Program-made: the position numbers and the translations under genes
The notes under the pieces: model-generated
What the model saw: the letters and a program-made list of their open reading frames with translations, nothing else
Database searches by the model: none
What the model was told of the DNA's origin: nothing
Shown: piece by piece, positions 3,655 to 63,312 of the stretch
Layout: each line of letters opens with the position of its first letter
Numbering within the stretch: the stretch's first letter is position 1
Source: Eledone cirrhosa
Lineage: Eukaryota
DNA length: 64,000 nt
Assembly (NCBI GenBank): GCA_964016885.1
Contig: OZ024740.1
Coordinates: 302,684,001 to 302,748,000 of the forward strand
Reading direction: 5' to 3'

Positions 3655-3666
3655 TTATTAAAATAA

Positions 3667-3740
3667 CAGATTAAAGTTTAAGCAAAGAATCGCTGCTTTC
3701 ACCCTTAACGGAATCTTCCGAAACTAACAAAGTCAATCTG
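3667..3740 (-). ncRNA. Variant type I HHR of PLE family 1 (core CGGAAGA/CAGAAGA)
   Basis: Sense: cagatt..agttt CGGAAGA ttcc-gtta-agggt GAAA gca..tgc TT aaact..aatctg. Stems I and III pair; the core has a purine at U4. Confidence 0.6.
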
Positions 3741-4651
3741 TAAACGCAGAACTGGATATTTCAAAAAACGTTGCAACCGGAGGAAGACAGGAAGACGATA
3801 TTTTGGTTCATGGTGACGTTTGCTGGCAAAGAACGGGAAAAAACGAATAATACGTCATTAATAGGAGCGGTGAAAAACAATTACGCGCAAAGACAGAACC
3901 ACGTTTATGGTATAAAAGAGGTCGTAGACTAATGTTCTCTAAGTGGTGCATAGAGACGTTCTCTGGCAATGAACGAAAAAACGAAGATAATAAGTCATAT
4001 GTGGAGCGTGGAGAACAATAGCGTGCAAAGACAAAACCACGTAAATGGTATAGCAGAAGTCGTAGACTAAAATTCTAACTAGGAGACCGAATGAATCTCC
4101 GCTACAGAGTTAAGAACAAAGTAAATAAATACAATACAGAAGTAATAGGAACAAATAAATACATACACGCAAACAGATACGTACATACACAAGCATACGC
4201 AAAACCTTACCATAGGTATACAAAACCACGCACATATAAATATGTGTATGTGTGTATGCTTGTGTACAAATAAATAAATAATTATATAAATGTATATAAG
4301 TAAATAAATACGTATATAACAAGCGCACACACATACCTACAAATAAATACATGAAGGTTCGGAGACGTAAGTCAACTAAAACAAGAAGTACACATATACA
4401 CACACCCACCATACGTACAAACCTGCATACTCACGCAGACGCAAAACTCCCATATACACATAACCAAGCCCTAAATACCAGAATATGTAAAAATTATACG
4501 CCAAAACAGTCAAATATACGTACGAGAAGGCATAAATACCTTCACAAAACATACGGGTAATATATACTTACCTATGCAAATAAGTAAAGGAATAAACAAA
4601 ACATATACTTAGCTCCCACATCAAGACGTAAATATTCACGTATAGATCGTG

Positions 4652-5150
4652 CTATCCGTTAGGGTATAACGTAAGGCTGTAATACAGGAAAGTTTTGTGC
4701 AATTTATGTTTACAAGCCGAAATTGCCTCAGATTTTTTGTTTAAGATGTGGTCTGTGGCGTAGAGTATTTCCAGGGCCTCAGCGGCGCAGAGGTCACATG
4801 GTCTTTTATTTCCGTTATACGATCTAGCCCTAGCTAGGATCTCCCAGTGTAACTTATATTGGGTGTGGTTGTCTTTTAGACTCCAGATATAAGCTGAAAG
4901 TGACGTCATATTCCTTCTTAGAGGGTAACGAAAAGAATGGGTATGCATGTAAAGACGCTGCTTGAAACTATTGGCGGTTAACCCTATGTAGGCCCTACGG
5001 GACGAGGGTGTTACAACCTTACATTTGTAGACAATGTTACTAGAGAGGCATTTCCCGGATAGGGGACAATCAGCCCGATTCCTACAATTACAGTTAGTAC
5101 TAACTACAGGGTTGCACGTGTTCCTACGGCTAGGTATTTTAGCTAAATTT
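4652..5150 (-). pseudogene. PLE Cys-linker + GIY-YIG endonuclease (frameshifted continuation of the RT ORF)
   Basis: CNCRNRADCPLSGKC, IVYKC..AYIGLT..FKQR..H, CDLC..E..LN. A 5-nt deletion (ctgtg) relative to the sibling at ~61924 causes the frameshift. Confidence 0.9.
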
Positions 5151-6776
5151 GAAGATGTTATGTGCAAGGTTAGGAGTAGTTGAGTAAGAAATTTTAATAG
5201 TGTTTCTATTAAAAATGTTACTATATTTATGTGTAGGGGGAAAATGCTTCGTAATAAGGGAAATAAAGATCTTAGCTAATGGTGTGGCCACCTCCATATT
5301 ATATGGTGGGTTAAACCAACAAATGCGACGGGATCTATTTCTTCTAGGTCTATTCTCGTACTCTGTATATGCTACCTTATCGACAAATCCACTTCGAGCA
5401 AGAGCTTCATTGTAATATGTGGAATGGTCGTTGAAAATGCGCTCGTTGGTGGAAAGACGGGAAAGCCTCAACGAAACGTTTTTTACCAGGTTCTTGGTTA
5501 TGCTGGCAGGATGGTTGGAATGCTTACTTATGTAATTAAGCGTATCATTCGGCTTTCTATACGGGTAATGCAACCCATTCAATAAATTGAGGGTAACGTC
5601 GAGGTAATTAACGACCGAGAGATTGGCCTCAACCTGTATAGAGAGGTTGAAGCCTTTAAAGAAGGCTGTGAGTTCTTTTCTGAATCTGTCGCAAGCACGA
5701 GGTCCGCACTTAGTCATGGTCAAAAGACCATCGTCACGGTACAAACCACCGCCCGCGTTGGGGAATTCGTCCTTGATAGAGAAAAGAAGGAAAAGGCCAA
5801 TAACATCAGTAACCTCCGCAGAGTCACTGGCGCCCATACTCACGTCGAATGGGGTACTATTGGATTTTTTAATCCAAATAGAATCGTCAAAATTAATCAC
5901 CGACTTTCGGGCATTAAGGATGACATCAACTTCGAAATCCTTAACCACTGTGAGTGTTTTAGCGAAATTGATAGCTCTAAGGAGAAGTGGTAAAGTGATG
6001 GAGGAGTAGTAATTGTTGATGTCGAATAGGATAAAACGGCAATGTTCCTTGTTACATATGCCGTTGAACCAATCAATCACCGCGAAAGAATTGTTCCACA
6101 GTGCGAGAGGGGCCAAATTTCTAATTTCAGGTATAATTCTATCAAGAATCGTTTTACTAAGTCTACCTAAATCGGACTTCGTAGGGTTAATAAGCCGAAT
6201 AGAGGGGTTGTTCAGAAAATTGGATTTGTGATCCTTCAGGGTAAAGTGGGAAGAGATAGGGTCCAGAGGTTCGGTCCGGTCCAGGATGTTGAGATCAGAT
6301 GTGATTTTAAACCCAGCATCGTTGATTTCATTGATGACACACCGATTAGTTTTACGGTAATCCTTAGTTACAGCATTATGTAGTAGTTGATGGTAAGTAC
6401 TGCGCTCCACTTGATATAGGTTGCCAGTTTTGTCGGAATGGACGTGCACGGCGTTAAAATCCTTAATAGAACGAATTCTATTCTTCAGGTCTTGCTGGAA
6501 GGAATTGCTCCTATTCCGAAATTTGATTCTCCGAATGAGTTCCAAGACATCATTTTCGAAGGGTAGCAATGCTGGGTTCCACTGAGGATTATTATAGGTT
6601 TTAAATCCAAATTTGTCCTGTTTGTTGTCTGCTTTTCGCGGATTATCGAAATAAAAGGCACGCCAACGCAACCTTTTAATGAACGCGTCTGTTTTCTGTA
6701 TCAGGAGTTTTAGGTATGTTTTCCTGCTTGGTACGGGTATGTTCTTTGTAGAAATATTCAGATGTTGTTTCTGCAT
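5139..6776 (-). CDS. PLE reverse transcriptase, 545 aa (N-terminal part of an RT-GIY-YIG polyprotein)
   Basis: SDKTGN motif, motif A FDINNYYSSI, motif B' SMGASDSAEVTD, motif C LYRDDGL, YLDVTL, YRKP, thumb WFNPPY. Confidence 0.93.
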   Translation of the reverse strand: MQKQHLNISTKNIPVPSRKTYLKLLIQKTDAFIKRLRWRAFYFDNPRKADNKQDKFGFKTYNNPQWNPALLPFENDVLELIRRIKFRNRSNSFQQDLKNRIRSIKDFNAVHVHSDKTGNLYQVERSTYHQLLHNAVTKDYRKTNRCVINEINDAGFKITSDLNILDRTEPLDPISSHFTLKDHKSNFLNNPSIRLINPTKSDLGRLSKTILDRIIPEIRNLAPLALWNNSFAVIDWFNGICNKEHCRFILFDINNYYSSITLPLLLRAINFAKTLTVVKDFEVDVILNARKSVINFDDSIWIKKSNSTPFDVSMGASDSAEVTDVIGLFLLFSIKDEFPNAGGGLYRDDGLLTMTKCGPRACDRFRKELTAFFKGFNLSIQVEANLSVVNYLDVTLNLLNGLHYPYRKPNDTLNYISKHSNHPASITKNLVKNVSLRLSRLSTNERIFNDHSTYYNEALARSGFVDKVAYTEYENRPRRNRSRRICWFNPPYNMEVATPLAKIFISLITKHFPPTHKYSNIFNRNTIKISYSTTPNLAHNIFKFS

Positions 6777-7059
6777 GATGAATATAAGTCAGTAGAGTGC
6801 TCAACCGAAGGAGCCAAATAGTAATAATAATAAAATTGAAGACTAAAATCCAGAGAGGGCTCGATAAGGAAAATATATATCAAATATATAAGAACCGAAG
6901 GGTGAAAGCGGCGATTCTTTGCTTAAACTTTAATCTGTTATTTTAATAAATATTTGCTCTTCGGTTCTTATATATTTGATATATATTTTCCTTATCGAGC
7001 CCTCTCTGGATTTTAGTCTTCAATTTTATTATTATTACTATATATATATACATATATAT

Positions 7060-7114
<55 letters not shown>

Positions 7115-7140
7115 TATGTATATATATATATCAATACATA

Positions 7141-7655
7141 TTTAAGTTGAAATAAAATGAAAACAAAATTTCATTTGTCACTCTTAGTACGGCACTTACT
7201 TAAATGTAAGTATGTATGTATACGTACATACATATATGTATACAGACGTACAGTAGCATGCATATATATATATACATACAGGTACACATACATATATGCA
7301 CGTATCAGTTTAGCGGACGCTAATTATATGCCTGACCGACTTAACTCAGTCGATATGCAAATTAGGCTGCTCAGCCGTTAATTTTCATAAGGAAAGTATA
7401 TACTTTCGAACGTTCAACTAACTGGCAGAAGGGTATACGGTACTGATGATAGCTAACAAGCTTGAAACTAGTATATCGTTCCTGTGTCAGTGTTGAACAA
7501 AAAGGTGACGTGGTTGCCTTAACACCGCACGGCATAAATTCAGGCTGTTCAGTTTGTTTACAAACGAACAAAGCGGCGTTATAATAAGCTTCCGCTAAAC
7601 TGATACGTGCATATATGTATGTGTACCTGTATGTATATATATATATATATACATA
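7141..7655 (+). mobile_element. Fold-back insertion of a ~470-bp HHR non-coding element (family B2)
   Basis: Homologous to 15735-16483 and 30270-30730; inversion junction near 7320; ATGCAAAT at 7355-62; HHR at 7437-79. Confidence 0.8.
7437..7479 (+). ncRNA. Minimal type I HHR
   Basis: acggta CTGATGA t-agct-aaca-agct-t GAAA ctag TA tatcgt. Confidence 0.88.
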
Positions 7656-8463: not shown

Positions 8464-8618
8464 TTATATAGATTTTGAGTTTCTGTTGGCTGTATACCAA
8501 CACCTCAGTATGCAGGCTGGAGCACTCGACGAAGTGCGCAGGTTGGTTTGGTTACTCCGGAGTAGTGTAAAATAAAGTTAAATAAAAGTCAAATGATTAA
8601 AATTTAGCTTCGTTTATT

Positions 8619-8673
8619 ACTGCTATATATATTTCAGTGACAGCCATCTTTGACTGTGACCTCTTCAGGCAGT
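8619..8673 (-). ncRNA. Type I HHR
   Basis: Sense: actgc CTGAAGA g-gtcacagtc-aaagat-ggctgtcac-t GAAA tatata TA gcagt. Confidence 0.82.
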
Positions 8674-8917
8674 TTGAATTAGTATGGTATAGACAAGTAC
8701 ATATGTTATTTAGGTGTATGATATTGTCAATACTCTGATATGCCCAGTTCCTTGTTGGGTTGTTAATTCATCCAGTTCCCCAGTGAATTAACAACCCAAC
8801 AAGGAACTGGGCATATCAGAGTATTGACAATATCATACACCTAAATAACATATGTACTTGCCAAAATGGCGTAGGATAGAAGAAAGGAAAGGCACAGAAA
8901 CGAAGAAAGAAATCCCC

Positions 8918-8962
8918 AGTCACTGAAGAGGTCACAGAGTGTGTGACGAAAGAACTATGACT
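8918..8962 (+). ncRNA. Minimal type I HHR
   Basis: agtca CTGAAGA g-gtcaca-gagtg-tgtgac GAAA gaac TA tgact. Confidence 0.82.
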
Positions 8963-9129
8963 ATATATATATAAACAACTATCTGGTTGTGGAACCAACC
9001 AACCAACCAGAAATTTATAAATTTGTAAATTTATAAATATATATTAAATTAAATTGAAGTGAAAGCAACTGGTGCGTGTGTTTCTTATTGGCAACATGAC
9101 CCTCCCAAAGTATAACAATATATATATAT

Positions 9130-10875: not shown

Positions 10876-12039
10876 ATATAAAAACAAATAACGAAACGAA
10901 ATTAAATTTCGTTTCGCTTCTAACTCACTTTTGTATATATATATAAAAACAAATAACGAAACGAAATTAAATTTCGTTTCGCTTCTAACTCACTGTTGTA
11001 TGACTGACGCTTAAACAATTAAGTTAAAGTGTACAGCTAGTCTGTATGTAACCACACAGACGGACCGGGTTTTAGAGTCATACGAGGTTTCAAGGAAACA
11101 CATTTCCTCTATTCTCCAGAGGGCCAGACAGGAACATTGGACTAGTTTCGATGTTATTACATCTCATCAGCAATATTTACCCATCTTCCGGCTTCTCTGG
11201 AGAATTGTAAAAGCACATATCGTTATATGCTTTTTCTATGAAAATTAGTAGTGGGTAGACTAATTTGCATAGAACGTGAGTCATTGTACGCACCGGTTCA
11301 GCGGAAACGATAAAAACAAATAACGAAACGAAATTAAATTTCGTTTCGCTTCTAACTCACTTTTGTATGACTGACGCTTAAACAATTAAGTTAAAGTGTA
11401 CATCTACATATGTATACGGAAGTATTAGTATGCATATAAATACACACATGTATACATCTGTACATGTACTCAGTTTTTCACTAGACACTTTACAGTGAGT
11501 GTCAGCTAGTCTGTATGTAACCACACAGACGGACCGGGTTTTAGAGTCATACGAGGTTTCAAGGAAACACATTTCCTCTATTCTCCAGAGGGCCAGACAG
11601 GAACATTGGACTAGTTTCGATGTTATTACATCTCATCAGCAATATTTACCCATCTTCCGGCTTCTCTGGAGAATTGTAAAAGCACATATCGTTATATGCT
11701 TTTTCTATGAAAATTAGTAGTGGGTAGACTAATTTGCATAGAACGTGAGTCATTGTACGCACCGGTTCAGCGGAAACGATAAAAACAAATAACGAAACGA
11801 AATTAAATTTCGTTTCGCTTCTAACTCACTTTTGTATGACTGACGCTTAAACAATTAAGTTAAAGTGTACATCTACATATGTATACGGAAGTATTAGTAT
11901 GCATATAAATACACACATGTATACATCTGTACATGTACTCAGTTTTTCACTAGACACTTTACAGTGAGTGTCCGCTAGTCTGTATGTAACCACACAGACG
12001 GACCGGGTTTTAGAGTCATACGAGGTTTCAAGGAAACAT
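10876..12039 (-). repeat. Tandem array of a 469-bp HHR-containing unit (family B1, retrozyme-like)
   Basis: Identical sequence at 11312 and 11781 (period 469); HHRs at 11134-76 and 11603-45; ATTTGCAT at 11263 and 11732. Confidence 0.88.
11134..11176 (-). ncRNA. Minimal type I HHR (second copy at 11603-11645)
   Basis: Sense: atattg CTGATGA gatgt-aata-acatc GAAA ctag TC caatgt. Confidence 0.92.
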
Positions 12040-12217
12040 ATATATATATATATTGATATATATATATATATATATATATTGATATATATATATATATATA
12101 CATTGATATATATATATATATATTGATATATATATATATATATATTGATATATATATATATATATATATTGATATATATATATTGATATATATATATTGA
12201 TATATATATATATATAT

Positions 12218-12257
<40 letters not shown>

Positions 12258-12613
12258 ATATATATATATATATATATTGATATATATATATATATTGATA
12301 TATATATATATATATTGATATATATATATATATTGATATATATATATATATTGATATATATATATATTGATATATATTGATATATATATATATATTGATA
12401 TATATATATATATTGATATATATATATATATTGATATATATATATATATTGATATATATATATATATTGATATATATATATATATTGATATATATATATA
12501 TATTGATATATATATATATATTGATATATATATATATATATTGATATATATATATTGATATATATATATATATTGATATATATATATATATATTGATATA
12601 TATATATATATAT

Positions 12614-12703
<90 letters not shown>

Positions 12704-12737
12704 ATATATATATATATTGATATATATATATATATAT

Positions 12738-12773
<36 letters not shown>

Positions 12774-12801
12774 ATATATATATTGATATATATATATATA
12801 T

Positions 12802-12859
<58 letters not shown>

Positions 12860-12875
12860 ATATATATATATATAT

Positions 12876-12941
<66 letters not shown>

Positions 12942-12945
<4 letters not shown>

Positions 12946-14908
12946 TGGAATAAATGCTCTGAAATAGCGATATATATGTGAATATAGACATAGAATATTC
13001 GAAAATATTCTGTATGTTTATAATAAACATTTTGAAGACCTAATCGCTATAGAATAGAATACGTCACGTATTACAATTAGATTCTCGATAAAAGCAAGGG
13101 AAGTAATCTACGCGTTTCATTCTCGTTAGAAATCATCAGGACTACATATCCAGTGCTTTTATCGAGAATGACACAGCTAGAGACTTATAGAATACTTAGC
13201 TGTGTACAGGAACTGGTTTGAAAGAGCGGTTGCCGGTCCGGCAGAAATTAGAAATTGGAATAAATGCTCTGAAATAGCGATATATATGTGAATATAGACA
13301 TAGAATATTCGAAAATATTCTGTATGTTTATAATAAACATTTTGAAGACCTAATCGCTATAGAATAGAATACGTCACGTATTACAATTAGATTCTCGATA
13401 AAAGCAAGGGAAGTAATCTACGCGTTTCATTCTCGTTAGAAATCATCAGGACTACATATCCAGTGCTTTTATCGAGAATGACACAGCTAGAGACTTATAG
13501 AATACTTAGCTGTGTACAGGAACTGGTTTGAAAGAGCGGTTGCCGGTCCGGCAGAAATTAGAAATTGGAATAAATGCTCTGAAATAGCGATATATATGTG
13601 AATATAGACATAGAATATTCGAAAATATTCTGTATGTTTATAATAAACATTTTGAAGACCTAATCGCTATAGAATAGAATACGTCACGTATTACAATTAG
13701 ATTCTCGATAAAAGCAAGGGAAGTAATCTACGCGTTTCATTCTCGTTAGAAATCATCAGGACTACATATCCAGTGCTTTTATCGAGAATGACACAGCTAG
13801 AGACTTATAGAATACTTAGCTGTGTACAGGAACTGGTTTGAAAGAGCGGTTGCCGGTCCGGCAGAAATTAGAAATTGGAATAAATGCTCTGAAATAGCGA
13901 TATATATGTGAATATAGACATAGAATATTCGAAAATATTCTGTATGTTTATAATAAACATTTTGAAGACCTAATCGCTATAGAATAGAATACGTCACGTA
14001 TTACAATTAGATTCTCGATAAAAGCAAGGGAAGTAATCTACGCGTTTCATTCTCGTTAGAAATCATCAGGACTACATATCCAGTGCTTTTATCGAGAATG
14101 ACACAGCTAGAGACTTATAGAATACTTAGCTGTGTACAGGAACTGGTTTGAAAGAGCGGTTGCCGGTCCGGCAGAAATTAGAAATTGGAATAAATGCTCT
14201 GAAATAGCGATATATATGTGAATATAGACATAGAATATTCGAAAATATTCTGTATGTTTATAATAAACATTTTGAAGACCTAATCGCTATAGAATAGAAT
14301 ACGTCACGTATTACAATTAGATTCTCGATAAAAGCAAGGGAAGTAATCTACGCGTTTCATTCTCGTTAGAAATCATCAGGACTACATATCCAGTGCTTTT
14401 ATCGAGAATGACACAGCTAGAGACTTATAGAATACTTAGCTGTGTACAGGAACTGGTTTGAAAGAGCGGTTGCCGGTCCGGCAGAAATTAGAAATTGGAA
14501 TAAATGCTCTGAAATAGCGATATATATGTGAATATAGACATAGAATATTCGAAAATATTCTGTATGTTTATAATAAACATTTTGAAGACCTAATCGCTAT
14601 AGAATAGAATACGTCACGTATTACAATTAGATTCTCGATAAAAGCAAGGGAAGTAATCTACGCGTTTCATTCTCGTTAGAAATCATCAGGACTACATATC
14701 CAGTGCTTTTATCGAGAATGACACAGCTAGAGACTTATAGAATACTTAGCTGTGTACAGGAACTGGTTTGAAAGAGCGGTTGCCGGTCCGGCAGAAATTA
14801 GAAATTGGAATAAATGCTCTGAAATAGCGATATATATGTGAATATAGACATAGAATATTCGAAAATATTCTGTATGTTTATAATAAACATTTTGAAGACC
14901 TAATCGCT
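12942..14908 (-). repeat. 310-bp HHR tandem array, ~6.3 copies (family A, retrozyme-like)
   Basis: gaaatagcga recurs at 12961, 13271, 13581, 13891, 14201, 14511, 14821; HHRs start at 13103, 13413, 13723, 14033, 14343, 14653. Confidence 0.95.
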
Positions 14909-15610
14909 CGTATTCTATTCTATAGCGATTAGGTCTTCAAAATGTTTATTATAAACATACAGAATATTTTCGAATATTCTATGTCTATATTCACATATAT
15001 ATCGCTATTTCAGAGCATTTATTCCAATTTCTAATTTCTGCCGGACCGGCAACCGCTCTTTCAAACCAGTTCCTGTACACAGCTAAGTATTCTATAAGTC
15101 TCTAGCTGTGTCATTCTCGATAAAAGCACTGGATATGTAGTCCTGATGATTTCTAACGAGAATGAAACGCGTAGATTACTTCCCTTGCTTTTATCGAGAA
15201 TCTAATTGTAATACGTGACGTATTCTATTCTATAGCGATTAGGTCTTCAAAATGTTTATTATAAACATACAGAATATTTTCGAATATTCTATGTCTATAT
15301 TCACATATATATCGCTATTTCAGAGCATTTATTCCAATTTCTAATTTCTGCCGGACCGGCAACCGCTCTTTCAAACCAGTTCCTGTACACAGCTAAGTAT
15401 TCTATAAGTCTCTAGCTGTGTCATTCTCGATAAAAGCACTGGATATGTAGTCCTGATGATTTCTAACGAGAATGAAACGCGTAGATTACTTCCCTTGCTT
15501 TTATCGAGAATCTAATTGTAATACGTGACGTATTCTATTCTATAGCGATTAGGTCTTCAAAATGTTTATTATAAACATACAGAATATTTTCGAATATTCT
15601 ATGTCTATAT
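14909..15610 (+). repeat. Inverted continuation of the 310-bp array, ~2.3 copies
   Basis: Reverse complement of the unit begins at 14909; HHRs at 15137-79 and 15447-89. Confidence 0.95.
15137..15179 (+). ncRNA. Minimal type I HHR of the 310-bp unit (8 copies in total)
   Basis: gtagtc CTGATGA t-ttct-aacg-agaa-t GAAA cgcg TA gattac, enclosed by attctcgataaaagca/tgcttttatcgagaat. Confidence 0.92.
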
Positions 15611-15630
15611 ATATATATATATATATATAT

Positions 15631-16483
<853 letters not shown>

Positions 16484-60461: not shown

Positions 60462-63312
<2,851 letters not shown>

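Follow-up and report, generated by a model that had tools for sequence, protein, structure and literature searches.

At positions 12942 to 15610 of a 64-kb window of the Eledone cirrhosa genome, 8.6 identical 310-bp type I hammerhead units stand in two arms joined 5' to 5'. The window is the whole stretch of 64,000 nucleotides that was analyzed, on contig C1 of a 3.0-Gb assembly. The evidence supports the assignment of the 310-bp repeat family as a dispersed non-long terminal repeat (non-LTR) retrozyme, and of the window array as one very recent insertion. For how such arrays come about, the best reading, and one that we regard as quite probable, is that reverse transcription, likely by a Penelope-like element (PLE), started at both ends of a break in an (AT)n run and went repeatedly around a likely circular RNA monomer.

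Tandem Repeats Finder reports a period of 310 at 12942-14908 and 14909-15622, and exact comparison finds 0 mismatches among the units of the array. If unit phase 1 is set as the first base past the predicted cleavage site (window 15174), the left arm has its 5' end at phase 61 and its 3' end at phase 167, at a position termed site B below, and the right arm has its 5' end at phase 46 and its 3' end at phase 127, at site A. Both arms run 3' into (AT)n. There are eight complete hammerhead cores, 6 on the minus strand (C3 at 14689, 14379, 14069, 13759, 13449 and 13139) and 2 on the plus strand, all of one RNA polarity. The array has a GC content of about 34% and contains no open reading frame (ORF) of at least 100 amino acids; the sole frames touching it are (AT)n frames that reach about 100 bp into its left end. 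A preliminary description of this DNA had named about 8.6 identical copies with one type I hammerhead per unit, no ORF and a head-to-head flip at 14908/14909 with both 3' ends in (AT)n, and all of this is borne out.

An exact 35-base core has 4,211 matches in the genome and an exact invariant 22-mer has 16,551, with 0 matches for either reversed control. At 9.95 units per array, 16,551 units correspond to about 1,660 insertions, and the forward-strand counts of array ends (725 for site B and 878 for site A), when doubled, agree with that figure; the reverse-strand end counts are inflated through overlapping matches. A satellite confined to a single locus is thus ruled out by an estimated 1,600 or so dispersed insertions. 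For the detailed comparisons we use a sample of 142 loci from contigs C1-C3 that includes the window; 10 of the loci were chosen only through the core, the others through an end pattern. The arrays on these contigs are flanked directly by (AT)n without LTR organization, primer-binding sites and polypurine tracts not having been searched separately. Substitutions confined to a single unit number 115 in 348,719 bp, or 0.033%. The defining traits of non-LTR retrozymes that can be read from a genome, namely size, GC content, a type I hammerhead in each unit, dispersal and self-pairing, are all present, and with the identity of the window units and the low divergence of the family they support the earlier suggestion of a recently inserted non-LTR retrozyme.

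The anatomy of the insertions is highly regular. The 142 loci hold 125 arm pairs joined 5' to 5', and in 113 of these pairs one arm ends cleanly at site A (unit 126-139) and the other at site B (unit 163-172). Four of the remaining 12 pairs have an end hidden by N or by the edge of the fetched sequence, 2 are B+B, and 6 have an extra internal switch. When arrays were picked by the core alone, 9 of 10 were A+B fold-backs; among 79 loci picked on the B end alone, an A partner was present in 60; and 3'-to-3' pairs were absent from the 102 loci checked. An AT run follows 236 of the 240 A or B arm ends. The exact base of site A is ambiguous because of AT microhomology with the target. The distance from A to B is 26-45 nt with a median of 37, an interval that would match the PLE "tail", i.e., two start sites of the reverse transcriptase (RT). 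Whereas the 3' ends are fixed in this way, the 5' ends fall anywhere in the unit, somewhat more often at 94-124 (P = 0.0007). The preliminary description had expected dispersed, variably permuted arrays in (AT)n; the dispersal and the (AT)n targets stand, and the permutation is limited to the 5' ends.

Microhomology of at least 2 nt is found at 46 of 92 insert-free arm junctions, versus 18% by chance, and the window junction is blunt. Inserts of 1-23 nt occur at 21 of the 113 junctions, many of them resembling unit sequence. The median arm has 4.1 units (about 1.3 kb), and 96 of the 113 arrays have more than one unit in both arms. The longest complete arm has 27.3 units (over 8 kb), and two arms exceed 29 units at the fetch edge. 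Arm lengths within arrays show no significant correlation (rho 0.16, P = 0.09) and fit a pure exponential poorly (P = 0.004, 84 arrays). The 5'-to-5' arms, the two fixed ends, the tail of about 37 nt and the (AT)n targets together point to PLE insertion primed from both DNA ends, in line with the PLE-type fold-back first proposed for the window. Two minor features of the junctions are recorded here. Locus L055 has, at 1899-2170, a 272-bp unrelated and GC-richer segment between its A and B arms, possibly a captured template, with no match in the other fetched loci. Identical junctions are repeated nearby at L184 and L185 (C2, 44 kb apart), L065 and L126, and are likely segmental or assembly duplications.

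Variation among the arrays bears on what was copied. Haplotypes were typed at four diagnostic sites, at which 104 of the 113 clean arrays are typable in both arms, and the arms agree in 103 of them, versus 24% expected from the haplotype frequencies. Rare array-wide variants number 47, from 28 arrays; all of them occur in both arms, and in no case is a variant fixed on one side of the junction and lacking on the other. One array, L111, differs from its parent haplotype by 14 changes, each an A>G in the ribozyme-sense strand, and all its units, in either arm, have these changes wherever the positions are covered. A 22-mer that marks them has 9 matches in the genome, all at L111. Clustered A>G changes on one strand are the expected mark of RNA editing by ADAR. 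As an ADAR-edited multimer would vary from unit to unit and the L111 units are alike, they suggest one edited monomer copied repeatedly, and L111 is likely an ADAR-like pattern from one RNA molecule copied about 8 times. With L111 set aside, A>G still makes up 13 of 37 distinct array-wide substitutions versus 5 of 115 single-unit substitutions (Fisher P = 6 × 10−6), and 22 of the 113 arrays have at least one array-wide A>G. Unit positions at which the arrays show such putative edits are 20, 88, 92, 101, 136, 218, 241, 259 and 276. An ADAR neighbor preference is not evident, with U or A on the 5' side at 19 of 24 edits versus 60 of 91 in the background.

The changes found in single units have another spectrum, T>C accounting for 25 and A>G for 5 (P = 0.0016), and it is alike in A and B arms and in both genomic orientations. 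This excess of T>C would fit G:U misincorporation by the RT in each round; transcription-linked mutation is also possible. Mirrored stretches contain 77 single-unit changes, and the partner arm lacks every one of them, contrary to what would be expected if one arm had been copied from the other as DNA. At the scissile bond, indels are found at 0 of 1,389 unit borders, though borders with damaged anchors would escape this count. The 5' ends fall at phases 1-3 in 3 of 226 cases, about 2 being expected; a pile-up of 5' ends at the cleavage site in unit-wise BLAST was an artefact that is gone on exact extension. Arrays with a 311-bp unit were considered as possible ligation scars and rejected, since the additional base, 2 nt inside helix I, marks a subfamily throughout its arrays. 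The unscarred borders and the lack of a 5' pile-up at the cleavage site favor a covalently closed template over jumps between linear monomers. The rolling-circle copying first suggested for the window agrees with the concordant arms, the L111 edits in all units and the intact scissile-bond borders.

The hammerhead has a helix I of 6 bp, a helix II of 4 bp and a helix III of 1-2 bp with a palindromic loop. This is the "canonical" metazoan type I form as defined in PMC4209133, and not the PLE "min-HHR" (Cervera and de la Pena 2014), which consists of the conserved nucleotides only, without helix III or loop 3; the label "minimal" in the preliminary description is therefore withdrawn. A canonical hammerhead with a weak palindromic helix III should cut itself when two units pair as a dimer and stay quiet in a circle of one unit. 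For the circular monomer the predicted folding energy is −67.8 kcal/mol (z = −4.5), with 0 of 200 dinucleotide shuffles as low, and the antisense circle has z = −5.2. Six hairpins had been proposed as the substance of the unit. Five of these are in the minimum-energy fold with mean pair probabilities of 0.57-0.98; the sixth, at unit 79-95, is outside that fold, yet it is 98% paired across 10 homologues. A 16-bp stem (unit 13-28 with 250-265) extends helix I, and 8 of 14 of its pairs change on both sides among the homologues. The branched arm at unit 59-145 is the best-conserved part among related families and contains the putative start site A.

Purifying selection acts on the RNA fold and core. 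Among 48 distinct array-wide substitutions, just 1 disrupts the core or a predicted helix, where 13.5 are expected from the same spectrum and 0 of 5,000 permutations are as low; without L111 the figure is 1 of 37 versus 12.7 expected. The single-unit substitutions behave as neutral, 52 of 115 being disruptive versus 52.5 expected. In a 10-copy alignment, 18 of 57 pairs change on both sides, a level reached in 0 of 500 shuffles and compared with 2-10 in slid controls, although the controls are favorable to covariation because the copies are relatives of one another and one of them supplied the structure. At the core pair, C3-G8 in some homologues is replaced by U3-A8 in others, and pairing is held in 10 of 10; this same covariation has been reported as active by Perreault et al. 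2011 (PMC3088659). Older, diverged families of the repeat have periods of about 280-325 bp and 3,176 matches to a variant motif (L136-L165, L092:4925-5239, L097:4231-4585). They share unit 59-196, seem to end at the same A and B sites, and have the U3-A8 core in 6 of 9 aligned copies.

The 310-bp unit has no RT or GIY-YIG ORF and hence is not an autonomous PLE. PLE-like ORFs flank the array in the window. The ORF at 5142-6788 has 1,720 homologues of about 600-800 amino acids; it contains RWR and DKT motifs itself, and CxCX5C is in the adjoining frame. These 3 motifs are marks of the Hydra clade, which targets (TA)n (PMC8557442). Pfam gives one weak, sub-threshold match, to Dam, for the 7 PLE-like ORFs of the window, and the PLE assignment is based instead on the homologues and on the motifs of PMC8557442. 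A Hydra-clade PLE is the likely helper enzyme. Elsewhere in the genome, L182:5170-7593 (minus strand) has an unbroken Hydra-clade-like PLE frame of 807 codons with RWR, DKT and CxCX5C, a candidate enzyme, although its 3' region has no match to the retrozyme. In the window itself, a Hydra-clade-like PLE lies at 3659-7039, with its ORF at 4655-6788 (minus strand) over two frames and a short inverted arm on its 5' side. Both of its ends are in (AT)n; judged by eye, they are offset by about 85 nt, more than a tail normally measures. A related copy is at 61385-62719.

A life cycle that would produce these arrays can be outlined as follows. Tandem transcripts would fold into dimeric hammerheads and self-cleave to monomers, which a host ligase would circularize, as suggested by the anatomy and by PMC4209133 and PMC7229834. 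Having only a weak palindromic helix III, the monomeric circle would stay mostly uncleaved, and it would be open to A-to-I editing, to which the sense-strand A>G changes point. A PLE GIY-YIG/RT protein would cut (TA)n, one DNA end priming at A and the other at B; the two ends are seen in the arrays, and the PLE is the presumed enzyme. Each RT would then make several rounds, the array lengths indicating a median of 4.1 and a maximum of at least 27 units per arm. The two cDNA ends would be joined through short microhomology or a templated patch, of which the observed junctions would be the product, giving the 5'-to-5' fold-back. The longest arrays may grow later at the DNA level.

A linear template in place of the circle, with PLE priming kept, would be a multimeric source-array transcript left uncleaved, or else a series of cleaved monomers copied by end-to-end template jumps. 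We think this unlikely, even with a PLE RT that uses uncleaved RNA in vitro (PMC11167929), homogeneous source arrays that would also yield concordant arm haplotypes, and templated inserts at 21 of 113 junctions as a sign of an RT capable of jumping. The units of an edited multimer should have different edits, whereas L111 has the same 14 edits throughout and no source copy in the assembly; monomer jumps should mix haplotypes and scar the cleavage site, and 103 of 104 arrays are uniform with 0 of 1,389 borders scarred. We find it decidedly improbable that a short retrotransposed copy was expanded as DNA, whether by unequal crossing-over or gene conversion, by a DNA snap-back that made the second arm, or from a rolling DNA circle. 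Expansion of this kind has in its favor that variants recur at constant intervals in the longest arrays (L053, L051, L104) and that single units of opposite arms share five variants, and a satellite route of local tandem amplification is suggested in bioRxiv 10.64898/2026.07.22.740005. Such expansion is hard to reconcile with 115 variants in one unit versus 15 in some units, with a T>C excess that follows RNA polarity in both arms, with the 77 changes in mirrored stretches that lack a partner-arm match, or with arms that each end at their own fixed start site in (AT)n, and a divergence of 0.033% leaves little time to homogenize two inverted arms at about 1,600 loci.

Twin priming is a mechanism of L1. 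That the helper is some other non-LTR retrotransposon working by L1-style twin priming is very improbable in our estimation: the arrays bear the signatures of PLEs, with fixed internal starts about 37 nt apart, (TA)n as target, inverted arms truncated at the 5' end, and a unit that lacks poly(A) or a repeat tail. In favor of another helper are the negative search for a PLE with the unit's sequence, in 30 loci of relatives and 20 Hydra-type 3' regions, and the presence in the fetched loci of long unclassified ORFs resembling other retrotransposons. Perfect identity and inverted arms also resemble read fold-backs, and a few arrays are at N gaps or apparently duplicated (L065, L126, L184/L185), so collapsed or mirrored reads were considered. 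We give an assembly artefact practically no credence, because the arms are not mirror images: the two differ in length, in 5' phase and in 3' end, the same A/B arrangement is repeated in 113 arrays on three contigs, and the haplotypes are locus-specific.

A different proposal concerns the circle itself. The 310-nt circle could be an animal viroid-like agent that persists or passes between hosts as RNA, with a PLE RT dimer writing it into the genome from both ends of one break, each array then being a record of a single RNA molecule. This is a speculative reading of low probability, kept because of the selection on the whole fold, the good folding of both strands, and the identical unit in runs with other organism labels; the ribozyme and the edits in one polarity only are points against it. 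Runs X1, X2 and X6 (organism labels A, B and D) contain the window unit 15000-15309 without differences, the kind of run being unrecorded. In X1 and X2 the unit is present as one closed 340-bp unitig at depths of 365 and 14, and X3 (label C) is heterogeneous. All four runs consist of contigs, which carry no information on expression, strand or ends, and no RNA run was listed as having the unit. X1, X2 and X6 may be the same species, host DNA or contamination.

Several observations weigh against copying of a circular monomer by a twin-priming PLE, or limit the case for it. The RNA, its cleavage and its circle are predicted from genome sequence, and most loci were picked through the A or B end pattern on C1-C3, so that the frequencies are not unbiased. 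Single-armed loci make up 15 of the 142, and 3 loci are not judgeable. Target-site duplications are unreadable because the targets are (AT)n runs. The Rfam HH9 score is weak, at 15.8 bits (gathering 52) and E = 0.14 in a 141-bp scan; Rfam gives no gathering-level match in the window, and a 24-kb E-value scan gave no hammerhead match on the 310-bp unit. The helix list behind the selection test is the unit's own fold plus one helix from the alignment. As to the single-molecule argument, it leans mainly on one hyper-edited array, L111. Fifteen variants are in several but not all units of an array, two of them in L053 recurring 7 units apart, which suggests DNA-level duplication in long arrays, and five partial variants are common to both arms. 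The arms of L120 are discordant. At L068 (C1:61292500-61302300), 276A>G is in 7 of 7 A-arm units but in 2 of 6 B-arm units, those last copied and proximal to the junction, for which gene conversion, a switch of template or an edit made to the circle while it was being copied could account. From the literature, uncleaved RNA is the main in vitro substrate for Anolis Poseidon (PMC11167929), and for Xenopus retrozymes, in vitro cleavage was seen in only 1 of 9 predicted dimers (Li, Clavereau, Pollet 2026, bioRxiv 10.64898/2026.07.22.740005). Finally, 30 loci of older relatives have no evident contiguous PLE pseudo-LTR (pLTR), with a decayed PLE fragment near one of them, L161, and 20 Hydra-type PLE 3' regions, the only PLE clade queried, gave only low-complexity AT-rich matches (best E = 0.013). 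With no PLE found to have the unit's sequence, the helper is assigned from anatomy only.

Among the closest known systems are the metazoan non-LTR retrozymes, described as tandem, non-coding repeats of 150-450 bp with GC below 50% and one type I hammerhead (Cervera and de la Pena 2020, PMC7229834). The families described there from axolotl (Rtz_331 and Rtz_353), coral and mussel are like the present one in size, GC content, hammerhead and a highly self-paired predicted circle. The weak palindromic helix III resembles that of HHR_Amex1, and HHR_Amex2 likewise has U.U at the bottom of helix II. Those families form head-to-tail arrays with larger target-site duplications when present, whereas most insertions here fold back as two arms, each with its own fixed PLE-type end in (AT)n, and single-molecule editing and errors are recorded in the arrays, unlike the families as described in that paper. 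On the other side, circles and cleavage have been measured for those families, while the 310-bp family is known from its genomic copies only.

An inverted 5'-truncated copy and a tail of 30-40 bp are hallmarks of endonuclease-containing (EN+) PLEs (Craig et al. 2021, PMC8557442), and the Poseidon PAc protein cleaves and extends both target strands in vitro, two internal RNA start sites bounding the tail (Frangieh et al. 2024, PMC11167929). The 310-bp family shares with these elements (the Hydra clade in PMC8557442, Poseidon PAc in PMC11167929) the inverted 5'-truncated copy, the tail, the (TA)n or AT-rich targets and the type I hammerhead, as well as a presumed pair of adjacent internal RT start sites and presumed extension of both target strands. 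It differs in having no ORF, in arms of up to at least 27 units and not partial tandems, and in having no sequence in common with the PLEs examined; its ends also have AT microhomology to the target, while the start sites of PAc lack such homology (PMC11167929). The Xenopus preprint (bioRxiv 10.64898/2026.07.22.740005) reports retrozymes that co-occur with PLEs, treats them as non-autonomous sequences derived from PLE pLTRs and, as here, proposes hijacking of the PLE machinery. It relies on co-distribution and pLTR homology, the latter not found here in the 30 relative loci and 20 Hydra-type 3' regions, and its main text is without analysis of insertion ends, fold-backs or within-array variants. 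With the hammerhead viroids and viroid-like satellite RNAs as described in PMC7761336 the family has in common its size, a predicted non-coding self-paired circle and presumed hammerhead processing of multimers, and unlike viroids it has the ribozyme in one polarity and is genome-encoded in thousands of copies.

Rolling-circle RT of ribozyme circles by PLEs has been proposed since 2014 (PMC4209133, PMC7229834, PMC7761336). The family type and the rolling-circle idea are thus already published, and the twin-primed anatomy and the single-molecule evidence appear to be the new part. In a literature search with subscription papers and supplements largely outside its coverage, we found no twin-primed fold-back retrozyme arrays with a PLE tail and no editing-based evidence for a monomer template; Fig. 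S9 of PMC7229834 and the tables of the 2026 preprint, also outside that coverage, may bear on this novelty. The 2026 preprint still grants limited empirical support for the retrozyme life cycle (bioRxiv 10.64898/2026.07.22.740005), and the origin of the inverted repeats and tail of PLEs is posed as an open question in PMC8557442, which this family joins to the rolling-circle proposal. An estimated 1,600 near-identical insertions act as natural replicates, in which changes of the template (all units) are separated from copying errors (one unit), akin to what Roll-Seq achieves by design (PMC11331410). Array lengths give in vivo estimates of processivity for a telomerase-related RT, with a median of about 1.3 kb per arm and a maximum above 8 kb. 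For reconstitution, the family supplies a 310-nt substrate, its start sites and a candidate enzyme clade.

Table 1. Coordinates of the array, its ribozyme and its flanks in the window.
Feature	Position	Strand	Basis or remark
Left (AT)n-type microsatellite, presumed insertion target	12038..12941		AT-run neighbors of A/B ends genome-wide
Left arm, 6.35 identical 310-bp units	12942..14908	-	Exact unit comparison
5'-to-5' arm junction, blunt	14908..14909		Without microhomology; phase 61 (left arm) and 46 (right arm)
Right arm, 2.26 identical units	14909..15610	+	Exact unit comparison
Type I hammerhead	15137..15179	+	Predicted cleavage after 15173; palindromic helix III
Helix I of hammerhead	15137-15142/15174-15179	+	Motif anatomy
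Hammerhead core CUGAUGA	15143-15149	+	Motif anatomy
Helix II with U.U at base	15151-15154/15159-15162	+	Motif anatomy
Hammerhead GAAA	15164-15167	+	Motif anatomy
One predicted monomer between two cleavage sites (putative 310-nt circle)	15174..15483	+	Core positions, circular fold
First strand of the 16-bp stem, unit 13-28; partner strand is unit 250-265 (15423-15438)	15186..15201	+	Pair probability 0.95
Conserved branched arm, unit 59-145, hairpins 79-95 and 98-117	15232..15318	+	Homologue alignment
Site A, unit about 123-139, fixed 3' end, putative RT start	15296..15312	+	Arm ends in sample
Site B, unit 163-172, second fixed 3' end	15336..15345	+	Arm ends in sample
Second right-arm hammerhead, predicted cleavage after 15483	15447..15489	+	Motif anatomy
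Right (AT)n microsatellite, presumed other target half	15611..15734		Sequence

The window contains other hammerhead elements. A second tandem family at 11028-12038 (minus strand) has a period of 469 bp and 2.2 copies that are 99% identical, with cores at 11170 and 11639; it scores 28.2 bits (E = 0.0024) against Rfam HH9 and adjoins the left (AT)n flank of the 310-bp array. A third family of about 470 bp is found at 7136-7630 (plus strand) and 15735-16480 (minus strand), with type I hammerhead cores at 7443 and 16072, between (AT)n runs. More hammerhead-like motifs are at 8480-8970, 20326/24076, 26283, 28635, 30043 and 49224, several of them in fold-back elements or in PLE 3' regions.

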